IMG/VR virus record: IMGVR_UViG_3300002143_000172
Location: 32,001-96,000 of that record
Length of the DNA: 64,000 bases
Origin: a virus
Direction: 5' to 3' (one strand)
Part shown: positions 4,410 to 52,121 of the stretch, one piece after another
Layout of the letters: each line of letters starts with the position of its first letter
Position numbering within the stretch: the stretch's first letter is position 1
Notes under the pieces: model-generated
Seen by the model: the letters and a program-made list of their open reading frames with translations, nothing else
What the model was told of the DNA's origin: nothing
The model's database searches: none
Made by a program: the position numbers and the translations under genes

Positions 4410-4708
4410 TGGTGCTCCGAGCCGGAATCGAACCGGCACGCCATTACAGCGAGGGATTTTCTTACCACTATAGTTTTCACTACCTTTGCAGTTTGGTGGT
4501 CTGGACTATACCTTCATCATAGCATTACTGCCTTAGATGCTCGCCGTCTAGTCTCTACACGTTCAAAGTAATTTCTTACTAAGCTTCGCTCGGTATTAGC
4601 ATGTTAAAGCCTTCACCGAATTTGACGAGTTCTACTCCCGGCATTTCCACCGGGGCACTCAAATTTTACTCTCAAGTCCCTTGTGTCTACCTATTTCACC
4701 ATCAGAGC
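4410..4708 (-). tRNA. tRNA-Leu(TAA) split by a group I intron (exons 4674-4708 and 4410-4460)
   Basis: Spliced loop GGGA-CTT|AAAA-TCCC; acceptor GCTCTGA/TCGGAGC. Confidence 0.9.
4461..4673 (-). mobile_element. Group I intron, 213 nt, no ORF
   Basis: P/Q/R/S-like motifs AAATTCGGTGAA, AATACCGAGC, GTAGAGACTAGACGG, AAGGTATAGTCC; inserted after a U and ends in G. Confidence 0.9.
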
Positions 4709-6616: not shown

Positions 6617-6711
6617 TGAGTCTCTAGTATAACATACTATTTTGTTTATGTCAATTCTGCTCATATAAATAGCTTTATGAATGTTATTTTTTGGAACGGC
6701 GGAATTAAAAT

Positions 6712-6785
6712 TGGCAGGGGCACTAGGGATCGAACCTAGACTAACAGAGTCAAAGTCTGTTGTGCTACCATTACACAATGCCCCA
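6712..6785 (-). tRNA. tRNA-Gln(TTG)
   Basis: Loop CTTTGAC, G73. Confidence 0.9.
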
Positions 6786-6947
6786 ACAAAAAGGTTTTCA
6801 AGAGCCCAACTATCCTCCTGGGAGGACTCATTGGATTGTCTCGACAAGGCAAGTTTATACAACCGTCATCGCCGTCTGCGGTGTCATACAGCCAACCAAA
6901 ACTGTACTAGGCTTGCGGGACTCGAACCTTGCGTCTATCTTGAAATT

Positions 6948-7022
6948 TGGTAGTAATGGAAAGAGTCGAACTTTCACAGCGCACCGTATGAAGGTGTTGC
7001 ACTACCATTATGCTACATTACC
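6948..7022 (-). tRNA. tRNA-Met(CAT)
   Basis: Loop TTCATAC, CCA. Confidence 0.85.
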
Positions 7023-7094
7023 ATATGTAAACACACTCAGAGGAGGCGTTCTCCGGCGCCGGAGTACCAAGCTGATCGTAAATGTGTTTGCATA

Positions 7095-7168
7095 TGGTAG
7101 GACCACCCGGACTCGAACCGGGATAGATCGGTTAAAAGCCGACTATTCTACCTTTGAATTATGATCCC
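7095..7168 (-). tRNA. tRNA-Lys(TTT)
   Basis: Loop CTTTTAA. Confidence 0.9.
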
Positions 7169-7172
7169 GTAT

Positions 7173-7247
7173 TGGTCCATGCTCTGAGAATCGAACTCAG
7201 TTCCTCCGGTTAAGAGCCGGTTACTTCGCCACTAAAGTTTAGCATGG
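7173..7247 (-). tRNA. tRNA-Lys(CTT)
   Basis: Loop CTCTTAA. Confidence 0.88.
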
Positions 7248-7329
7248 GTTGTGTATTAAATTGATTTAATGTGCCAACCCTAGACCAATACGGGATCTAG
7301 AGCGACACTATCGTTTACCTCGTTTCATG

Positions 7330-7458
7330 TCAATCTCCTTTTTTGATATTACGATTTTGTGCTTGGCGTTCTGATTTCCAGAACACTCGTTTCCAATCTT
7401 TCAAATGCTTCCACCATTGTGGAGGCGCTGTCAAGTTACCCTTTTTGACATTTGCCAT
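7330..7458 (-). CDS. 42-aa basic Trp-rich small protein (MANVKKGNLTAPPQWWKHLKDWKRVFWKSERQ...)
   Basis: AAGGA SD, clean ORF below track cutoff. Confidence 0.65.
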   Translation of the reverse strand: MANVKKGNLTAPPQWWKHLKDWKRVFWKSERQAQNRNIKKGD

Positions 7459-7485
7459 ACTGGTTCCTTTTTTAATTTAAAACTA

Positions 7486-8130
7486 TTATTTGCTGTGCAG
7501 TAAATTTACAAACTCTAACAATAGAGCATGATGTCTGCGATTATGCCAATGCTCCGGCATCCATGTATAACTGTCATACCAAAATTTTTCACTTTCTAAA
7601 TGACAGCCCATTAAACCTAAATTTCCCTGTATTATTGCCATAGGGTCTCCGTTGGCATAGGTAGCAACGGTAGTAAACTTTGTTTGATCTCCAATGAAAC
7701 AACATCCGTCATTGTAGAACATCTTGTCCGACTGTCCATTCCAGGTAACTGATATTGCTTTAGTATGTGGTCTATGAGTATCTGCGGTAGGTTGCTTGTA
7801 ATACTGTACAGCGTCTACATCCTCAAGCAGATCAAAGTAATAATGATTGGCCCAATATGCGCCCATACATATTCCTAGATACTTGCCCCCACTATTAACA
7901 AACTCTTTAATAAGATCGGCGTTATTTTTTAGCAGATAATCGTAGCTATCGGAATTTCCAAAACCACCGGGAAATGCAACTATATCAACATCATTGAAAA
8001 AATCTTCTTCTAGCTCGTGCTTGGTAAAGATTTTAAAATCATAATGGCTTTTAAGTGCTTGCATGATACCATTGCCCGACTGTACAGAACACATCGGTTG
8101 ATGTATGAACAGTGCAATCTTAGGTTTCAT
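7486..8130 (-). CDS. BPL_N / class I glutamine amidotransferase-like protein
   Basis: FPGG, GGKYLGICMGAY, HLE; start MKPKIAL after TAAATA. Confidence 0.8.
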   Translation of the reverse strand: MKPKIALFIHQPMCSVQSGNGIMQALKSHYDFKIFTKHELEEDFFNDVDIVAFPGGFGNSDSYDYLLKNNADLIKEFVNSGGKYLGICMGAYWANHYYFDLLEDVDAVQYYKQPTADTHRPHTKAISVTWNGQSDKMFYNDGCCFIGDQTKFTTVATYANGDPMAIIQGNLGLMGCHLESEKFWYDSYTWMPEHWHNRRHHALLLEFVNLLHSK

Positions 8131-8143
8131 AACTTTATTTATA

Positions 8144-8219
8144 TGGCACCCCCGGAGAGAATCGAACTCCCATTCCTGCGTTCGTAGCACAGTGTATGAA
8201 TCCATTATACGACAGGGGT
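8144..8219 (-). tRNA. tRNA-Arg(ACG)
   Basis: Loop CTACGAA. Confidence 0.9.
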
Positions 8220-8231
8220 ATAAATAATTTT

Positions 8232-9437
8232 ATGAAAAACTGGGAAAATGTTAAAAAACTGCACATAGAAATAAGTTCTCAATGTAACGCTGTATGTCCT
8301 ATGTGTACTCGGTATCCAACCGCTAGTTACTTTGAGCACCCGCATATACAGAAAGACTGGATGTGGACTGTAGACACAGTAAAACAACGACTACCTAAAG
8401 AAGATTTAATAGGTATAACTTCATACCTTATCAATGGCACCTTTGGAGATTTTATTATGAACTCCGAAGCAATAGAAATAATACAGTATCTAAATGAATG
8501 TTCACCCGATGCTAGTCTTTATATCAATACCAACGGTTCTGCTAGAAACGCAAGTTGGTGGAAAGAACTTGCAAAGATTCCTAATGTAGTAGTAAATTTT
8601 GCAATCGACGGATTAGAAGATACTCATTCACTTTACAGGAGAAACACTAGCTGGTCTAAGATTATTGACAATGCTAAAACATTTATAAATTCGGGCGGTC
8701 ATGCAGAATGGACAATGATTATATTTGAGCATAATAAGCATCAAGTTGATGCTTGCTTTAATCTCAGCACAACTATTGGATTTAAATCATTTACCAGCCG
8801 AAATAGCGACCGAATCAATACTGATGTTCTTGATAAAAATGGCCTTAGTAAATACGGAATAAAATCTGCCGATCCTACCATTACCAGTTATCGATCCTAC
8901 CATCAATTACAGTGGAAAGAAACTATATTAAAGAAAGGTCAGTTTTACGCAAAGCAAACATACCAAACCGGCGCATTGCCTAGTATAGACTCATGCTCGA
9001 GTATTTCGGAAAGTTCGGTATACATAGGATCAAATTGGTCCGTAATGCCGTGTTGTTTCTTAGGAAACATTACGATGGGTAGGCAGACTGATCATAGGTG
9101 GGCAAATTTCTTAGATGCACTCACTAACGCAGGATTTTCCTTAACCGACTTTGATGCAACAAGTACCAAAACAGTTCGTCAAGTATTTGAGCAAGGGTTT
9201 GACTGGGTATACAATCGCATATTAACCGACAATGCGTTAGTTGCTTGTTCAACAAATTGTCATCCTGTGGACAGTGCATTTCAGAGAAGTATGGCAAGTC
9301 GTCAACATGAAACCCTTAAAAATATGGTGCCGCCCCCAGGGATCGAACCTGGTTCCTCGGTGCTTCAAACCGGTGCTATGACCACATCAGCTAAAGCGGC
9401 ATTGGTACCAGCGGAGGGTATCGAACCCTCTCACTGA
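8232..9437 (+). CDS. Radical SAM protein (SPASM-like C-terminus)
   Basis: CNAVCPMC, NTNG, IDG, MPCC; tail runs antisense through tRNA-Phe. Confidence 0.85.
   Translation: MKNWENVKKLHIEISSQCNAVCPMCTRYPTASYFEHPHIQKDWMWTVDTVKQRLPKEDLIGITSYLINGTFGDFIMNSEAIEIIQYLNECSPDASLYINTNGSARNASWWKELAKIPNVVVNFAIDGLEDTHSLYRRNTSWSKIIDNAKTFINSGGHAEWTMIIFEHNKHQVDACFNLSTTIGFKSFTSRNSDRINTDVLDKNGLSKYGIKSADPTITSYRSYHQLQWKETILKKGQFYAKQTYQTGALPSIDSCSSISESSVYIGSNWSVMPCCFLGNITMGRQTDHRWANFLDALTNAGFSLTDFDATSTKTVRQVFEQGFDWVYNRILTDNALVACSTNCHPVDSAFQRSMASRQHETLKNMVPPPGIEPGSSVLQTGAMTTSAKAALVPAEGIEPSH
9325..9400 (-). tRNA. tRNA-Phe(GAA)
   Basis: Loop TTGAAGC. Confidence 0.88.
9403..9434 (-). pseudogene. Isolated tRNA 3' half
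   Basis: T arm plus GCTGGTACCA, no 5' half. Confidence 0.65.
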
Positions 9438-9447
9438 TGTTATCTAT

Positions 9448-9524
9448 TGGTACCTCCGGCGGGAGTCGAACCCCCAACCACCTGCTTCTAAGGCAAGCCG
9501 CACTACCAATTAGCGTACGAAGGC
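9448..9524 (-). tRNA. tRNA-Leu(TAG), short variable region
   Basis: Loop CTTAGAA, 77 nt. Confidence 0.8.
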
Positions 9525-9529
9525 ATATA

Positions 9530-9606
9530 TGGTACCCCGTGTCTGATTCGAACAGACATCCAACTCCTTTTGAGAGAATTCGCACTACCAATTAGCGTAA
9601 CGGGGC
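9530..9606 (-). tRNA. tRNA-Leu(CAA), short variable region
   Basis: Loop CTCAAAA, 77 nt. Confidence 0.8.
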
Positions 9607-9616
9607 ATAAAAACTT

Positions 9617-9692
9617 TGGGGTGCTCTATGAGGATCGAACTCATACTACCGGGGTCACAGACCAGTGTGCAGGCCACTACACTAAGAACACC
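9617..9692 (-). tRNA. tRNA-His(GTG)
   Basis: G-1, C73, loop CTGTGAC. Confidence 0.9.
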
Positions 9693-9698
9693 ATTGTT

Positions 9699-9775
9699 TG
9701 GAGCACAGGGTGGGACTCGAACCCACGACTTTACGGATTTGCAATCCGCTACATTGGCCGCTCTGTCACCTGTGC
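9699..9775 (-). tRNA. tRNA-Cys(GCA)
   Basis: Loop TTGCAAA, U73. Confidence 0.9.
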
Positions 9776-9782
9776 ATATAAT

Positions 9783-9856
9783 TGGAGCGGGTAGCGAGAA
9801 TCGAACTCGCGATTAAACTTCGGCAAAGTTTTAGGTTACCATTACATCATACCCGC
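9783..9856 (-). tRNA. tRNA-Gly(GCC)
   Basis: Loop TTGCCGA, U73. Confidence 0.9.
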
Positions 9857-9864
9857 ATTGTTTG

Positions 9865-10464
9865 TTAGCCAAATAATATTTTTTTGGCATCTTTAAAATA
9901 TGTATTACTTTGAATATTTTCCATTATTCTTAGAGTTAATACAACTCTAAGTGAGTTTGATCGACTATTGTCAAAATCATGAAAAATATCTGTGTTAAAC
10001 AATATACATTCATTTGATTTTGCGACCATACTTTTTATCGGTGTATGTTTTGTTTTATCGAAACCAGCACATTCTCTTGAAGTTTTTTTCTGCAAATTGT
10101 CTATTAGATACTCTTTTAAATCTTCATCACTATACCAATTAGTAACACACGCTTCGTCTAAAATTTGAACGGTATAGTTGATACTAAATCGATCAGACAT
10201 TCCGTCCTTGTGTGCCCTGTAATATCCACCGGGCTTTGTCATAAACAAACTAACACGATGTGGCCTTAATGGCATTTGCTTTGCCATTGGTAGTAATGAA
10301 AGAAGATGATTCGCTTGATCTTTTGGAAAAGGGTAATGAATAAAAGTCTCATTATCCTCGATTGAAGGCATATTCTTTTTACAATAGTCAACGATCTTAT
10401 CTAGCCCGTCGTGGGTAAATCTAATATAGTACGGACTGCAATCTTCGATTATTGTATAGGTCAT
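9865..10464 (-). CDS. 2OG-Fe(II) oxygenase-like protein
   Basis: AHKD...FNTDIFH...R pattern. Confidence 0.6.
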   Translation of the reverse strand: MTYTIIEDCSPYYIRFTHDGLDKIVDYCKKNMPSIEDNETFIHYPFPKDQANHLLSLLPMAKQMPLRPHRVSLFMTKPGGYYRAHKDGMSDRFSINYTVQILDEACVTNWYSDEDLKEYLIDNLQKKTSRECAGFDKTKHTPIKSMVAKSNECILFNTDIFHDFDNSRSNSLRVVLTLRIMENIQSNTYFKDAKKILFG

Positions 10465-10487
10465 ATAACTATTTACAATCTAAAATT

Positions 10488-10579
10488 TGGCGGAAGACGG
10501 AGGAGTCGAACCCCATCCCATTTCTGAGAACCCAGTTTTCAAGGCTGGTCGGCGCACCAACGCACCTGCATCATCTTCC
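10488..10579 (-). tRNA. tRNA-Ser(TGA), 8/4 allo-tRNA/selC-like fold
   Basis: 8-bp acceptor, 6-bp D stem with 4-nt loop, 4-bp T stem, G73, long variable arm. Confidence 0.8.
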
Positions 10580-10585
10580 ATAACT

Positions 10586-10659
10586 TGGTCCTCTCGTATG
10601 GAATCGAACCATCATCTACCGGTTATCAGCCGATTGCTCTACCATTGAGCTACAAGAGG
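10586..10659 (-). tRNA. tRNA-Ile(GAT)
   Basis: Loop CTGATAA. Confidence 0.9.
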
Positions 10660-10668
10660 AAATAAAAC

Positions 10669-10726
10669 AGGATGCATTTTTGGCTTTTTTTCAAGAAAAG
10701 ATTTTTAAATTTGCTGGAAGCATCCT
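10669..10726 (-). ncRNA. Small structured RNA with anticodon-arm mimic, copy 2
   Basis: AGGATGC/GCATCCT stem, CAGCAA motif, CTTTT-CTTGAAA-AAAAG. Confidence 0.55.
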
Positions 10727-10732
10727 AAAACT

Positions 10733-10807
10733 TGGCGGTCTGTGGGGGAATCGAACCCCCGTAAGTGGATAGACAATCCACAGTAATAACCTCTATACGA
10801 ACAGACC
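10733..10807 (-). tRNA. tRNA-Asp(GTC)
   Basis: Loop TTGTCTA, G73. Confidence 0.88.
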
Positions 10808-10812
10808 TAAAC

Positions 10813-10887
10813 TGGTACTGCGTACGGGAATCGAACCCGTCTCTTTGGCTTGAAGGGCCAAGGACCTACCCAGAAGTCCAACGCAGT
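10813..10887 (-). tRNA. tRNA-Glu(TTC), C33 variant
   Basis: Stem TTGGC/GCCAA, loop CCTTCAA. Confidence 0.8.
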
Positions 10888-10894
10888 GTAAAAT

Positions 10895-10970
10895 TGGTCT
10901 CGCATGAAGGACTCGAACCTTCGAAATCCTGGCCCCAAACCAGGTGGCATAGCCGCTAACCGAATGCGAG
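10895..10970 (-). tRNA. tRNA-Pro(TGG), second divergent copy
   Basis: Loop TTTGGGG. Confidence 0.88.
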
Positions 10971-10977
10971 ATAAACT

Positions 10978-11052
10978 TGGCGTACCGGGAGGGATTTGAA
11001 CCCCCACTAGCAGTTTTGGAGACTGTCGTGCTGCCGTTAACACTACCGATAC
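10978..11052 (-). tRNA. tRNA-Trp(CCA)
   Basis: Loop CTCCAAA, G73. Confidence 0.9.
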
Positions 11053-11098
11053 ATAACTTGGTGGACTCAACAAGCTCATGCTTGCATTTGTCCTTAAT

Positions 11099-11173
11099 TG
11101 GTGGAGGCCGAGGGAATCGAACCCTTCTAGTCACGATGCTTGCAAGGCAACGCCGTAGCCCATTACTGCCCCC
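11099..11173 (-). tRNA. tRNA-Ala(TGC), reduced D arm
   Basis: G3:U70, loop CTTGCAA, short D region. Confidence 0.75.
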
Positions 11174-11178
11174 AATTG

Positions 11179-11721
11179 TTAGACGACAAGTAATTCTTGC
11201 CATCTTATAACTTTTGATTCATCATAAACATCACGCTTACCTTTTCTTGCGTTTTCGCTTGCCGGTAAGTACTGTAAATTGTCTTGATGATGTAGTCCTC
11301 CGTTTGCTAACGGAATCCTATGATCAACTTGATATCCTTCCGGAACAAATTGATAAATTTTTCTGATTAAATCTAAATCAGCATTGTCAGGTATAGCATT
11401 TCTTTTCCGTGCTCTGTAAGCATAGACATTTGCTTTATTACCTGCTCTTTTATGTTCTTCAGTCACTCTGCCTCTATGGTCCCAGTAAGCATTTCTAGCT
11501 TCTGAAATTTTAGCAGAATGTTCTTGTGTCCTAGGAGGAAGTTTTACACCCTTTCTGTTCGGCATTTTAGACTTACCAGAAACAATAGCTTTCTTAACAC
11601 CGTTAGCAATTTTTTCTTTAGTATCTGCTGTTCTAATTCTACTGTTAGCACATGCTCTTGAGCAAAATTTTCCAGATCCAAAAGATCCATTGTGTGTAGT
11701 GTTACATTTCAGACATTTCAT
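11179..11721 (-). CDS. HNH homing endonuclease
   Basis: KFCSRACAN, NUMOD-like basic region, VDHRIPL..GGLH...NLQYL..SEN..K. Confidence 0.88.
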   Translation of the reverse strand: MKCLKCNTTHNGSFGSGKFCSRACANSRIRTADTKEKIANGVKKAIVSGKSKMPNRKGVKLPPRTQEHSAKISEARNAYWDHRGRVTEEHKRAGNKANVYAYRARKRNAIPDNADLDLIRKIYQFVPEGYQVDHRIPLANGGLHHQDNLQYLPASENARKGKRDVYDESKVIRWQELLVV

Positions 11722-11776
11722 ATTAGTTCTCCTAATTGTATTTATACAATCGTACTCAGCTAATACAAATTACATT

Positions 11777-11852
11777 TGGCTCCCCAGGTATGGATCGAAC
11801 ATACGACATCTTCGTTAACAGCGAAGCGCAACTACCTCTGTGCTACTGGGGA
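11777..11852 (-). tRNA. tRNA-Asn(GTT)
   Basis: Loop CTGTTAA, G73. Confidence 0.9.
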
Positions 11853-11886
11853 ATAAATTAGTGAAGGATTTCACGGAATAGAAAAT

Positions 11887-11974
11887 TGGTGAAGAATGAT
11901 GGAATCGAACCACTTGCCGCCACCCCGCTTAACAATGGCCACCGGGTTACAGCCGGCGACGGGGAACATCCTCC
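11887..11974 (-). tRNA. Tyr(GTA) tRNA-like RNA lacking a D arm
   Basis: Acceptor, anticodon arm with loop CTGTAAC, T arm, ACCA; D arm replaced by TTCCCCGT. Confidence 0.65.
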
Positions 11975-12237
11975 AAAACACACTCTAGCAGTTTATCTTT
12001 CTGCCTCTTTGTACTATGTACTCGGAACGAATGTGTGTATTAAAACAAACTGACTAGCTACGCTCCGACACTAACTTCACAGGTTAGCCGTGTGCCAATT
12101 TGCTTTAATACGAACTAATTTTTAGTCCCACAAGAGGGATTCCATCCTAGTCGCCGCCCGTTTAAGACTTGTTTTAAGTGCGTCTTCAGGACCTCGTTTC
12201 CTGGGCATTGCTGCTCTTACTTTCACACTTTGCGATT

Positions 12238-12829: not shown

Positions 12830-12866
12830 AAAAAACGAAACCCCAGGGTTTTTAATCCTGGGGTCC
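12830..12866 (-). terminator. Intrinsic terminator of the attenuator
   Basis: GACCCCAGG-ATTAAAAAC-CCTGGGGTT-TCGTTTTTT. Confidence 0.85.
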
Positions 12867-12890
12867 TTGAAGTTGTTGTGTATTTTTGTG

Positions 12891-13022
12891 TTACACTACA
12901 CGCTCCCGGGACCCCTGGCAAATCTCTGGTGTACGATCATTACTTGATAGTAACCAAGAGGTGGGCATAAAGCCTGCCTGTTTGGCATCTAATCTATAAT
13001 AATGTATCGAACAGTTTTTCAT
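12891..13022 (-). CDS. Putative attenuator leader peptide MKNCSIHYYRLDAKQAGFMPTSWLLSSNDRTPEICQGSRERVV
   Basis: 43 codons, all 20 amino acids, 35 distinct codons; 3' part complementary to the terminator 5' arm. Confidence 0.75.
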   Translation of the reverse strand: MKNCSIHYYRLDAKQAGFMPTSWLLSSNDRTPEICQGSRERVV

Positions 13023-13080
13023 TTGCTTTCTCTTTATTTCCTAAAAATTTACAAACAGCATTATTGCTGCCTATGTGTTA

Positions 13081-13109
13081 ATTATACAGTTATTTAGCAT
13101 CGCTGTCAA
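13081..13109 (-). promoter_or_regulatory. sigma70 promoter (proximal) of the tRNA array, with embedded TAAATA
   Basis: TTGACA-GCGATGCTAAATAACTG-TATAAT. Confidence 0.88.
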
Positions 13110-13170
13110 CCTCTTTTTATATTTTTGACAAAAAAGATTTTTAACAACTCTTCTTCCTAACCATGTGTCT

Positions 13171-13199
13171 ATTGTATATTTATTTAGCATCGCTGTCAA
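13171..13199 (-). promoter_or_regulatory. sigma70 promoter (distal), tandem duplicate
   Basis: TTGACA-17-TACAAT; shares GTTGACAGCGATGCTAAATAA with the proximal promoter. Confidence 0.85.
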
Positions 13200-21428: not shown

Positions 21429-23480
21429 TTACTTGCTCGTTGCCCTAAAAATTCCGTCCCAATCAGCAGTAAGATTGGCATGACGCATTTCGTTAATTCG
21501 TTCAACCCATAAATCATAGTAGTGGTCCATGTAACCATTGAATTGACCACGCAGTTGGCTAACCGCTAATAAAGCAACATCCCAATTTTGTGTCCTGTAT
21601 GCATAAAGCATAGTATTATGTTGTTCTCTTGCTCGCTCCCACATATCCATATTAAATTCTGGATTATAGAATACTGTGTAAATGGTAACGCCGTCCTTCT
21701 TACCTTTAACAGCGATACAGTCTAGTTCTATAGTAAAGTATTCTCCATCAAGTCTTTCTGCTGTTGTAGGTCCGAGGACAATTAACACACCGTAATTTTT
21801 ACTCTGTCCTTCTAGGCGTGATGAAAGATTAACGGCATCTCCGAGACAGGTGTAATCAAATCTCTGTTCTCCTCCCATATTACCAACTACAACAACACCA
21901 GTATTACAACCAATACCAAGCCCAAAAGGAGGAACCCCTTCTTTACCAATTTCTTCATTAAATATCTTAACTGCATCTAACATCTCCAGTGCGGCTTTAA
22001 CACTATCTTTTGCATGTTTATGGTTGTCTAATGGTGCATTCCAAAAGCTCATAGTAGCATCGCCGATATACTTGTCTAGCGTTCCTTCATTTTCAAGAAT
22101 AACTTTTGTTACTACAGTCATATAACGATTCATGATTTTAGTAAGGCCTTGCACATCGGCGCCATAGTGCTCGCTGATACTAGTAAATCCACGGACATCA
22201 CTAAATTGAATTGTTAAGTCTTGACTATCGCCACCTAGTCTTAGTAAACTAGGATCCTTAACAAGTTTAGCAACCAAGTCCGGACTCAAATAACTACCGA
22301 ATTGTTTTTTAATCTGTTGCTTTTGTAAGAACTCACTGACGAACTTGACCATGTAGGCATGCAGAGCGACCAAAACTATGCCAACGGCAAAAGCAGTACT
22401 GTCGAATAGGTAAAGGTAATGGCTGTAAGCAAACATGCTACCGTAGATAACACCGCCAACCACAACAACCGTTGCCACAATACCTACATAAGTCCACCTC
22501 ATTAAAAATATTAAAAGAATACCTGCAAACAACATAGAATAAGTTTCTAACTCATCTGCATATCCGGGTCGCTGTATGCTAGTTCCGGAAATCATTGTTC
22601 CCAACAAACTAGCCTGTAGATCCTGGGGCCATATTTCTCCACGGCTAGTAGCAACGGGTTGTACTAGCCCGGCGGCGCTTAATCCTACGATAACAATCTC
22701 ACCGTTAAAATCTTTGGGCAATTTTGCCAGGCTGTGTTGTTTAGGTTGTTGGCTCCAATCGATCCATATTCGACTTAGTGAATCTACTGTGATTTTGCTT
22801 AACTTAGGAACACGGAGTGCTTCGACTCCCTCTTCACCTATTTTAACCTGTATCTTAGTGTCTCCCACTGCAATACGCAATGCATCTAATGACATAGCAG
22901 GATGTATAGTATCTTCGCTCATAATCAGCAAAGGCATACGGCGAACTACACCGTCAATTTCTGGAAAGGTATTTACGATTCCCTTGCCCGCGGCTTTTTC
23001 TTGTAGCATAGGAAGGTTAGCAATGATACCGGGATACTCAACCATTGTGCCGCCGGGTGCGTTCCCAATAACCTGCACTGCTGTTCCAAAGGTTTTATTT
23101 TTACCTTTGACGCTGGCAACTTCGGGTAATACTACAGGATATTTTTCTAGTACTTGGGCCAGTTGATTATCTTGACCAAACCTGTCTTTCTCAGGCATGA
23201 GGATATTAAGGACAACGAGTCCAGCATTTCTATCATACAGGTCTTTAATAATATTAGCATAGGTGCCCCTTGGAAAAGGAAATTGACCATACTTGTCTAA
23301 CGCATCTTCGTCAATATTAACCGTATGTACAGCGATATCTTTAACAGGCTGGCTAGTTACCAATTGATCAAAATAGCGTAGTCTTACAGATTCTATAAAA
23401 CTAGGATCTGTCCATCTTAAACATACCATTATGGCTAAGGTGATTAGTGCTGTCCACGGATTCAGTAATAGTTTTTTCAT
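21429..23480 (-). CDS. CHASE2-domain class III adenylate/guanylate cyclase
   Basis: CHASE2 (VNIDE, DGVVRR), TM helices, FSDVRGFT, DKYIGDA, GDAVNLSSRLEG. Confidence 0.92.
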   Translation of the reverse strand: MKKLLLNPWTALITLAIMVCLRWTDPSFIESVRLRYFDQLVTSQPVKDIAVHTVNIDEDALDKYGQFPFPRGTYANIIKDLYDRNAGLVVLNILMPEKDRFGQDNQLAQVLEKYPVVLPEVASVKGKNKTFGTAVQVIGNAPGGTMVEYPGIIANLPMLQEKAAGKGIVNTFPEIDGVVRRMPLLIMSEDTIHPAMSLDALRIAVGDTKIQVKIGEEGVEALRVPKLSKITVDSLSRIWIDWSQQPKQHSLAKLPKDFNGEIVIVGLSAAGLVQPVATSRGEIWPQDLQASLLGTMISGTSIQRPGYADELETYSMLFAGILLIFLMRWTYVGIVATVVVVGGVIYGSMFAYSHYLYLFDSTAFAVGIVLVALHAYMVKFVSEFLQKQQIKKQFGSYLSPDLVAKLVKDPSLLRLGGDSQDLTIQFSDVRGFTSISEHYGADVQGLTKIMNRYMTVVTKVILENEGTLDKYIGDATMSFWNAPLDNHKHAKDSVKAALEMLDAVKIFNEEIGKEGVPPFGLGIGCNTGVVVVGNMGGEQRFDYTCLGDAVNLSSRLEGQSKNYGVLIVLGPTTAERLDGEYFTIELDCIAVKGKKDGVTIYTVFYNPEFNMDMWERAREQHNTMLYAYRTQNWDVALLAVSQLRGQFNGYMDHYYDLWVERINEMRHANLTADWDGIFRATSK

Positions 23481-23532
23481 AGTCAAATATTTAGTCAAGA
23501 TAATAGGGCCGAAGCCCTATCGATTGTTAATG

Positions 23533-31572: not shown

Positions 31573-32089
31573 ATTCCTTCATCATGCGTATTGCCCAATC
31601 GAAGGCTATGTTAGCTTCATCTCCCATGCTGTCGTTTAACTTAGCACGGATGTTGGTCATCAAAGTTTTTGTATCTTCAAATTCTAAAGCACGGTGACTG
31701 CCTGGAACAATTTTCTTAATCATCTGTCCACCAAACATATCACCCATGTGCCATGTGTATAGATGCGCCATTACCTTATTGGGGTCTTTACTAATACTCA
31801 ATAGATAATTATGATAATCTTGTACCACGGGTCTATAATCTGGACGAGTTTGATCTTTGGACATTTCGCAGTAGTCTTGATAGATGTAGTATGTTCTACG
31901 AAGATCTGGAAGATCATTTAGAAGTCCACAGGCACCGGCAGCGCCTTCTATCGTTCCATAGAACAATGTTTTTTGATATGTCCAATCTACCCACAAACTA
32001 AAAGGCAATGTCTTTGCGAACACTGCCTTCATAAATTCAGTTGACTCTGCTTGTTTGTGTTTTTCTTGTGTTAATTCTTTTAAGCTCAT
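31550..32089 (-). CDS. Heme oxygenase
   Basis: LKELTQEKHKQAE, AHLYTWHMGDMFGGQMI, EANIAF. Confidence 0.9.
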   Translation of the reverse strand: MSLKELTQEKHKQAESTEFMKAVFAKTLPFSLWVDWTYQKTLFYGTIEGAAGACGLLNDLPDLRRTYYIYQDYCEMSKDQTRPDYRPVVQDYHNYLLSISKDPNKVMAHLYTWHMGDMFGGQMIKKIVPGSHRALEFEDTKTLMTNIRAKLNDSMGDEANIAFDWAIRMMKEYDNELVV

Positions 32090-51497: not shown

Positions 51498-51547
51498 TTA
51501 AAATTTCCTCATTGCAGACTATTTACCGTGTATGTATTACACAGAAA

Positions 51548-51573
51548 AAGAAAGCACCCGAAGGTGCTTTCTT
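51548..51573 (-). terminator. Terminator after tmRNA coding piece
   Basis: AAGAAAGCACC-TTCG-GGTGCTTTCTT. Confidence 0.85.
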
Positions 51574-51574
51574 G

Positions 51575-51916
51575 CTATTTTCGGTTACAAGGTATAACTA
51601 CCTCGTGGAGGTTACGCCGCTAGGCGAACTTCTCCAAAAAATGCGTCGTTTGCATTTATGGTTTTTGCTTGATTTACAGTCATCGCCTACTGTGTTGCCT
51701 CTTTCGCTATCTCACCATGTCGAAACCGGTCGGGCCCATTAGGGAATATATTATCTTGGCTCCTGCTGTTAGGCTATCAACACTCAAGTTCCGCCCTCAT
51801 CATAATCTATGATTAGTTTGGGCTTCAGATTGGATCATAATATACTCTCTGGTGGACCCGAGGGGAATTGAACCCCCGTCCACGATGCCTTCACTACGAA
51901 GGAATTACAACAATTC
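51575..51916 (-). ncRNA. ssrA: Circularly permuted (two-piece) tmRNA; tag ANDAFFGEVRLAA at 51612-51653
   Basis: Acceptor piece ...GGGGGTTCAATTCCCCTCGGGTCCACCA (ends 51850) precedes coding piece GGGCCCGACCGGTTTCGAC (starts 51737); G3:U pair. Confidence 0.9.
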
Positions 51917-51917
51917 T

Positions 51918-52121
51918 TTACTGCGGCTGAATATTAGCCGCTTGCAAACCTTTTTGTCCTTGTACTACATCGAACGATACTGTTTGATTCTCTGTTAGAA
52001 CTTTGAAGCCCGAAGTTTGAATTTCACTGTAGTGGGCAAATAAATCTGCACCACCTTTGTCTGGAGTAATAAACCCAAAACCTTTGGTTTCATTAAACCA
52101 TTTTACTTTACCTGTTGCCAT
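51918..52121 (-). CDS. Cold-shock protein
   Basis: GKVKWFN..KGFGFI, FAHYS. Confidence 0.95.

Follow-up and report, generated by a model that had tools for sequence, protein, structure and literature searches.

A predicted translational attenuator sampling every amino acid ahead of the tRNA arrays of lake phages

The leaders of amino-acid operons, such as trpL, hisL and pheL or the multivalent thrL, ilvL and ilvBN, carry a short open reading frame (ORF) close to the promoter and a terminator that shares a strand with an antiterminator, and the end of the ORF is where a ribosome blocks the antiterminator. In the leaders of the Tn916 tet(M) orf12, ermK and vmlR type, the speed of the ribosome in a short leader sets readthrough of a terminator, so that the state of translation is reported. 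T-box riboswitches likewise report the charging of transfer RNA (tRNA) by a choice between terminator and antiterminator. Here we describe an element of related anatomy in a phage genome. The window analysed is a stretch of 64,000 nucleotides, positions 32,001 to 96,000 of the IMG/VR record IMGVR_UViG_3300002143_000172. This record of 159,170 base pairs has a single tRNA region, whose 31 tRNAs called by ARAGORN all lie on the minus strand and at whose head stands the only copy of the element in the record. We read it as a ribosome-mediated transcription attenuator, whose leader ORF is selected to contain every amino acid, and usually every decoding class, and which gates the phage tRNAs. We put the probability of this reading at about 0.72.

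An original prediction, made from the letters of the window, placed two sigma70 promoters, a 43-codon ORF and an intrinsic terminator one after the other on the minus strand, and all of them were found where predicted (Table 1). The minus-strand stretch 13261-12830 begins with a weak promoter-like site ahead of both promoters, and a purine-rich stretch lies between a stem-loop of the 5' untranslated region (UTR) and the leader ORF. The terminator consists of a 5' arm (GGACCCCAGG, 12866-12857), an 8-nucleotide loop, a 3' arm (CCCTGGGGTT, 12848-12839) and a U-tract reaching 12830. A competing pairing had also been predicted, between GGGGTCC at the end of the leader (12915-12909; GGGGUCC in the RNA, hereafter segment 2) and the terminator 5' arm (segment 3), extended by GGAG with CTTC. 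This pairing, GGGGUCC with GGACCCC and GGAG with CUUC, is part of the minimum-energy fold of the 250-nucleotide transcript (z = -4.4), and the leader stop codon (12893-12891) lies inside the apical part of the hairpin so formed. The 3' arm of the terminator and its U-tract are called segment 4. The features by which an attenuator is recognised are thus present: a short ORF after a promoter, an intrinsic terminator, an antiterminator sharing a strand with it, and an ORF end placed so that a ribosome there would be expected to mask the antiterminator.

The composition of the window leader had drawn attention from the outset. As described then, it has 35 distinct codons among 43 and all 20 amino acid kinds; its five Ser residues use five codons, and each of eight amino acids present in two copies uses two synonyms. 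When ORFs were drawn from the codon usage of the genome, at least 35 distinct codons were reached with P = 0.003, and 20 amino acid kinds with P = 0.02. No other ORF among 150 comparable short ones of the genome has both properties. The codon count, whose comparison with simulated ORFs had been proposed, is therefore unusual against genome codon usage; given the peptide it is not. With the amino acid sequence held fixed, 32.5 ± 2.1 distinct codons are expected against the 35 seen (P = 0.17), and codon diversity was rejected as a signal in the window alone. By itself the window is suggestive at best, and the case depends on its relatives.

The same promoter-ORF-terminator unit was found on more than 140 phage contigs of IMG/VR. 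A first set, of at least 119 stretches, came from a search with the exact terminator pattern, and a second, of 34 further loci, from a search anchored on the conserved block AATGATCGNACACCAGAG. Family statistics were computed on 91 distinct copies and folding statistics on 89. An ORF of 35-53 codons starting with ATG is kept in 91/91 distinct copies despite many in-frame indels, and the distance from its end to segment 3 is 17-28 nucleotides. One to four near-consensus sigma70 promoters lie within 330 nucleotides in all 91 copies, and at least two in 74. In practically every locus with enough downstream DNA, an array of up to 41 tRNAs begins on the same strand 190-1170 nucleotides past the terminator, and in most loci there is no tRNA upstream of the element. 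The 2 kb preceding the promoters sort into 24 unrelated groups, so that the conserved neighbour is the tRNA array. That relatives would retain ORF, terminator and competing pairing upstream of tRNA arrays was thus borne out, in the 91 distinct copies and in 89 of 89 folds.

Completeness of the leader in amino acids holds across the family. All 20 kinds are present in 80 of the 91 leaders, 19 kinds in nine and 18 in two. When the columns of the alignment were shuffled, only 18% ± 4% of leaders, and at most 30%, had all 20 kinds. Among leaders less than 50% identical to one another, 16 of 22 clusters have all 20 kinds and five have 19. In the second, independently anchored set, 22 of 25 leaders have all 20, the remaining three lacking Cys only. 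Three controls behave otherwise. All 20 kinds occur in 1.6% of the other 35-53-codon ORFs of the same loci, in 3.1% of 46-residue windows of long genes, and in 3/55 members of a neighbouring small-ORF family (mean 54 residues), whose mode is 17 kinds. Very divergent leaders are complete too, and one reaches all 20 amino acids within 35 residues. The family data rule out a chance origin of the properties of the ORF.

How completeness is kept is best seen with the rare residues. Cys is found in 91/91 leaders, with 1.2 copies per peptide, yet its positions range over 24 alignment columns, the fullest of which has no more than 18 of them. The same pattern is seen with His, Tyr and Phe, at about one copy each and shifting positions; Trp, by contrast, is invariant at a fixed position. 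These four residues, evidently lost at one site and regained at another, therefore point to selection on composition.

The same is true of decoding classes. We counted 24 of them, splitting Leu, Ser, Arg and Ile each into two boxes and keeping elongator Met apart from the start codon. All 24 classes are present in 52/91 leaders, and at least 23 in 74/91, whereas 0.05-0.08% of controls have all 24; the window leader has 24/24 within 43 codons. Single classes exceed even the highest value of the shuffled alignments: Ser AGY occurs in 98% of leaders (shuffle mean 81%, maximum 90%), Ile AUA in 84% (mean 68%, maximum 76%) and internal Met in 99% (mean 82%, maximum 91%). Both boxes of Ser, Leu and Arg are present together in 67% (mean 29%, maximum 42%). 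Synonymous diversity beyond the classes is only modestly raised (mean z +1.1 over 23 cluster representatives), although 96% of leaders lie above expectation. The high codon diversity anticipated for the relatives thus exists as a modest excess, and the real signal lies in the completeness of amino acids and classes. This points to completeness, not maximal codon diversity, as the property under selection. Codon usage of the leaders also differs sharply from that of phage genes (GAG 0.90 versus 0.18, GCG 0.33 versus 0.07, ACT 0.06 versus 0.39), and part of this shift reflects conserved RNA motifs. Runs of regulatory codons, that is, the clustered cognate codons of a classical attenuator, are absent from the leaders.

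The second line of evidence is the RNA. Folded singly, 89/89 copies form a long hairpin of three tiers: GGGGUCC with GGACCCC, GGAG with CUYC, and a variable apical stem that contains the stop codon. Its mean energy over these copies is -21.3 kcal/mol, against -16.2 for the terminator. Compensatory changes are found in the middle helix (GGAG/CUCC, GAAG/CUUC, GUGG/CCAC, UUGG/CCAA) and in the apical helix (GUGUA/UACAC, GAGUAU/AUACUC, GGUUU/AAACC, CGGAUAC/GUAUCCG). For the outer helix the key test came from about 25 members of the block-anchored search, which have other terminators. Where segment 3 is GGACCCC, the facing base is G in segment 2 in 28/30 copies and G in segment 4 in 30/30. Where it is GGACCCU, the facing base is A in segment 2 in 15/18, and A in segment 4 in 14/17, the other three forming G-U pairs. 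For position 7 of segment 3 against segment 2 the table of counts is 28, 2, 3, 15 (Fisher P = 8.5e-8, without phylogenetic correction); at least four peptide clusters show the A-U state. At position 2 of segment 3 a change from G to A is answered by C to U in segment 2. The expected covariation of the antiterminator pairing was therefore observed, in segments 2, 3 and 4 as well as in the middle and apical helices. Moreover, GGGGUCC is read in three frames across the family (57, 21 and 5 copies) and kept in all three, so it is conserved as RNA and not as codons. Segment 3 is thus selected for pairing with two alternative partners, which is the defining anatomy of an attenuator.

Alignment-based folding was less informative. 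RNAalifold recovered the terminator alone on a MAFFT alignment, because the variable hairpin is misaligned, and per-sequence folds were used in its place. On a codon alignment, which is not structure-based, it gave no conserved helix inside the ORF. One relative (IMGVR_UViG_3300008110_005229) carries a natural deletion, in which GCCAGGG runs directly into ACCCTGGGGTTTTT and the 3' part of the antiterminator is lost together with segment 3. Its sequence suggests that segments 2 and 4 recombined.

The position of the ORF relative to these helices fits ribosome control. Segment 2 starts at a median of 21 nucleotides ahead of the leader stop codon, and from standard footprint sizes a ribosome at the stop codon or within the last ten codons or so would mask GGAG and at least part of GGGGUCC, and would sit inside the hairpin. 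The codons at least 13 nucleotides upstream of segment 2, about 35 of them, already include 18-20 amino acid kinds; the kinds they lack are mostly Glu and Val. The mechanism that we propose is as follows. Strong early sigma70 promoters would launch a transcript beginning with the leader ORF. Unhindered ribosomes would stand at the last ten or so codons, or at the stop, while the polymerase makes segments 3 and 4; with GGGGUCC and GGAG covered, the antiterminator would stay open, the terminator would form, and a leader RNA of about 240 nucleotides would be released. If the ribosome were held within the first 35 codons or so, or never loaded, the GGGGUCC..GGAG strand would pair with CUYC..GGACCCC as soon as the latter is made. 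Segment 4 would then be left single, and the polymerase would continue into a small ORF and the promoter-less proximal tRNAs. The loop would be homeostatic, more tRNA giving faster translation of the leader and more termination.

What sequence and comparison show is the ORF and its completeness, two mutually exclusive helices that covary, where the stop codon lies, the association with tRNA arrays and the absence of a promoter ahead of the next gene; that translation chooses the fold, and the direction of the response, we infer. The natural trigger would presumably be a shortage of charged tRNA, through starvation, host shut-off or tRNA-cleaving defences. If so, a large group of freshwater phages would possess an 'omnivalent' leader of about 45 codons, sampling all amino acids and nearly all decoding classes, and with it would switch on their tRNA arrays when required, for instance upon degradation or cleavage of host tRNAs or upon starvation, which we hold to be somewhat better than an even bet.

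Table 1. Coordinates of the switch and of the genes following it in the window
Feature	Position	Strand	Remark
Upstream sigma70-type promoter, TTGACA-17-TACAAT, 11/12	13199-13171	-	near-consensus match
Proximal sigma70-type promoter, TTGACA-17-TATAAT, 12/12	13109-13081	-	near-duplicate of the upstream promoter
5'-UTR stem-loop, GGCAGCA-AUAA-UGCUGUU	13074-13051	-	also present in relative L001
Leader ORF, 43 codons + TAA	13022-12891	-	20 amino acids, 24/24 decoding classes
Conserved block AAUGAUCGUACACCAGAG, codons N-D-R-T-P-E	12924-12941	-	3' border of the region in which stalling should release the antiterminator
Segment 2, GGGGUCC, 5' strand of the antiterminator outer helix	12915-12909	-	partner 12866-12860
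Middle helix, GGAG (12906-12903) / CUUC (12872-12869), around the apical hairpin	12869-12906	-	
Segment 3, GGACCCCAGG, strand common to antiterminator and terminator	12866-12857	-	three-way covariation
Segment 4, intrinsic terminator 3' arm (CCCUGGGGUU, 12848-12839) with the U-tract behind it (ending at 12830)	12830-12848	-	
HNH homing-endonuclease gene	12763-12371	-	PHROG 2255, E = 7.8e-23
Conserved 50-residue ORF, motif HTLTxEQxKxLIQxKxxRA	12390-12238	-	displaced by the HNH insertion in the window
tRNA-like gene	11975-11890	-	not called by ARAGORN; weak Rfam tRNA-Sec match, 25.8 bits, E = 0.045
tRNA-Asn	11852	-	follows the tRNA-like gene
Proximal tRNA block, about 19 tRNA genes	6712-11975	-	without near-consensus promoter; presumed regulated target

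Downstream of the terminator, the predicted order of terminator and tRNA array was found, but the two are not directly adjacent, as the HNH gene and a conserved ORF of 50 residues intervene (Table 1). In about 55 of 83 loci of the relatives, a member of the same small-ORF family, 49-65 residues long and with a good Shine-Dalgarno sequence, starts 19-23 nucleotides past the terminator stem. Such a gap leaves no room for a promoter of the small ORF. If the attenuator model holds, the small ORF is co-regulated with the tRNA array. Across these loci the family motif reads HTLTxEQxxKLIQDKFERAR, and neither Pfam nor PHROG gave a match. The HNH gene of the window, preceded by an AGGAG Shine-Dalgarno sequence, is an insertion at the very junction of attenuator and small ORF, and does not belong to the ancestral unit.

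A scan of the window for minus-strand promoters matching at least 11 of 12 positions found none between 12830 and 6654. About 19 proximal tRNA genes therefore depend on readthrough. The distal ones do not, since consensus promoters on the minus strand lie at 6654, 6532, 5521, 3628 and 838, in agreement with the internal promoters that had been noted from about 6650 down. Gating of the array by the switch, as originally proposed, consequently applies to the promoter-less proximal part and the small ORF, and not to the distal half. A match to a group I intron lies within the tRNA region at 4480-4683 (minus strand), scoring 50.2 for an Rfam gathering score of 50.

The relatives also show how the front of the unit varies. 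The -10 box ends 6-10 nucleotides ahead of the leader ATG in 33 of 91 copies (for example L102, L016 and L089), which predicts a leaderless messenger RNA there. The window version has instead a 5' UTR of about 52 nucleotides with its stem-loop. A 90%-identical relative obtained by a neighbour-gene search (L001) has three promoter copies, a 52-codon ORF and the same hairpins, and lacks the HNH gene.

DNA of the element was found in lake and freshwater metagenomes from at least 12 studies. Other collections gave little. No match to the region or to its conserved 3' part came from blastn against 50,697 records of cultured phages, and tblastn of the leader peptide against cultured phages gave chance matches only (E = 0.8, Ralstonia phages). 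No family of Pfam or PHROGs includes the peptide, and only 12 predicted proteins match it, all unnamed. Rfam gave no match at 12830-13080, at E <= 1 or at gathering thresholds, T-box included. The one match among representatives of bacterial and archaeal genomes, in a metagenome-assembled genome of Lachnospiraceae, was rejected as an unrelated hairpin with no leader.

Among the assembled contigs of public runs, two lake metatranscriptomes, from two studies, each contain a contig of 241-252 nucleotides that matches the window with one mismatch from 13080 to 12838/12840. Its depth is 613-663, compared with 17-58 upstream of 13080, and it starts at the border of the -10 box and stops where the terminator stem does. 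As unitigs break at branch points and in conserved sequence, this gives no more than a weak indication of an abundant terminated leader RNA in nature. No metatranscriptome contig covers 12672-12833, downstream of the terminator, but contigs cannot show absence, so this is no gauge of termination efficiency.

Such an RNA would also be made by an ordinary early micropeptide gene with strong promoters and its own terminator, whose peptide would itself be functional and whose hairpin would do no more than stabilise the 3' end while the tRNA array is expressed independently. A gene of this kind would have conserved blocks and an invariant Trp, as seen here, and the 12 predicted proteins of the family would be its products. 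However, it leaves unexplained why Cys, His, Tyr and Phe are held at about one copy with shifting positions and why 24/24 classes are present. It offers no reason either for the covariation of segment 3 with both its upstream partner and the terminator arm, or for the conservation of GGGGUCC in three reading frames. In addition, the next gene stands 19-23 nucleotides past the terminator with no promoter, and the peptide belongs to no Pfam or PHROG family. We regard a plain micropeptide gene as very improbable.

The discrete RNA contig of high depth from about 13080 to about 12838, recovered in two studies, could be taken as a product in its own right. The terminated transcript of about 240 nucleotides would then be a functional small RNA, trans-acting or of dual function, and its position before the tRNAs would reflect co-expression. 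Its strong fold (z = -4.4) and very highly conserved 3' hairpin agree with this, and rnTrpL is a precedent for an attenuator-derived small RNA with a function in trans (PMC6614838); as for rnTrpL, the terminated leader may accumulate here as a discrete RNA. Yet Rfam has no match, and a small RNA needs neither an ORF open in 91/91 copies with a complete amino acid set nor two exclusive helices. Such a role is compatible with the attenuator as an addition; as a replacement for it we find it unlikely. A last alternative keeps the attenuator and changes what it senses: general translation only, through ribosome loading or coupling, or else a ligand or protein bound at the conserved block of the leader, and not individual tRNAs. 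The antiterminator is the default fold when no ribosome is present, codon runs are absent and the conserved block is still unexplained, all of which a general sensor would accommodate. It would have no need of every amino acid and decoding class, yet these are maintained against drift, and we give this alternative very little credence. No one of the three accounts for both the compensated completeness and the covariation of segment 3 with two partners.

Several points nevertheless weigh against an attenuator that samples every amino acid. The leaders contain two blocks, AKQxGFMPxYW and NDRTPE, which are more conserved than a pure sensor requires and which neither the model nor any helix within the ORF explains. 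The expectation of a poorly conserved peptide was correct for the drifting amino acid positions, and wrong for these blocks; the peptide, or the RNA stretch coding for NDRTPE, may have a further role. Most amino acids are represented by single codons, whereas classical attenuators gain sensitivity from runs of them, and one hungry codon may give only a shallow response. By our footprint estimate, Glu lies at the boundary in 51/91 leaders and Val occurs only in the last codons in 20/91, and stalls there should not induce. The Shine-Dalgarno sequence of the window leader is weak, as had been pointed out. Neither an anti-antiterminator nor a pause hairpin was found in the leader, so that the default without translation is probably readthrough. 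Two further points concern the target: in the window the HNH gene, with a TATAAATA motif (12790-12783), separates the switch from the tRNAs, and the distal half of the array is provided with consensus promoters of its own. As to method, the covariation statistics carry no correction for phylogeny and the first set was ascertained by an exact terminator pattern. Finally, the phages are uncultured, and the attenuator is a prediction from their sequences.

The NDRTPE-coding block itself, AAUGAUCGYACACCAGAG (12924-12941), is near-invariant in its nucleotides, third codon positions included. It contains ACCA and lies at the decision point of the switch. No pairing partner was found for it; it might be a pause site, a site of nascent-peptide effect or a binding site.

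Two other features of the genome were observed. A transfer-messenger RNA (tmRNA) lies at 51547-51949 on the minus strand and is of the betaproteobacterial two-piece (permuted) type (RF01850, 139 bits; RF04321, 132 bits), its tag peptide being ANDAFFGEVRLAA according to ARAGORN. A tmRNA of this type is a hint that the host is a betaproteobacterium and that the genome has a second function in translation rescue. At 21429-23498 (minus strand) a protein of 689 residues combines a CHASE2 sensor with an adenylate/guanylate cyclase domain (Pfam E = 1.9e-34 and 2.5e-18).

Discussions of phage tRNA arrays usually treat them as constitutive cargo for codon usage or counter-defence. If our reading is true, they are expressed on demand through translation feedback, and the reason why phages carry tRNAs can be tested directly, since one can ask which shortage switches the array on. 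The leader would be a clean case of codon-level sensing, where selection apparently acts on composition, one of everything, besides sequence. It could serve synthetic biology as a ready-made small reporter, universal in scope, for the supply of aminoacyl-tRNAs. In lake metagenomes, members of this unannotated family are abundant. In the full-text literature we found no leader with all amino acids and no attenuator ahead of phage tRNA arrays; coverage being incomplete, this is absence of evidence only. As far as could be found, leader-peptide attenuation of tRNA genes is undescribed.

Compared with the known systems, the element combines familiar parts in a different way. A T-box recognises a single uncharged tRNA species by direct binding and needs no translation, whereas here an ORF is conserved and neither T-box nor other Rfam families match. 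What leaders of the tet(M), ermK and vmlR type sense is ribosomes affected by a drug, or a few rare codons; they control resistance genes and have no compositional completeness. The leaders of amino-acid operons are closest in anatomy. They possess a 1:2 anti-antiterminator, for which no counterpart was found here, so that the untranslated default, termination in those operons, is probably readthrough in these phages. They control biosynthetic enzymes, whereas the genes following the phage element are tRNAs. Lastly, they carry runs of one to three regulatory amino acids, whereas the phage leaders carry about one codon for each amino acid, over 24 decoding classes.

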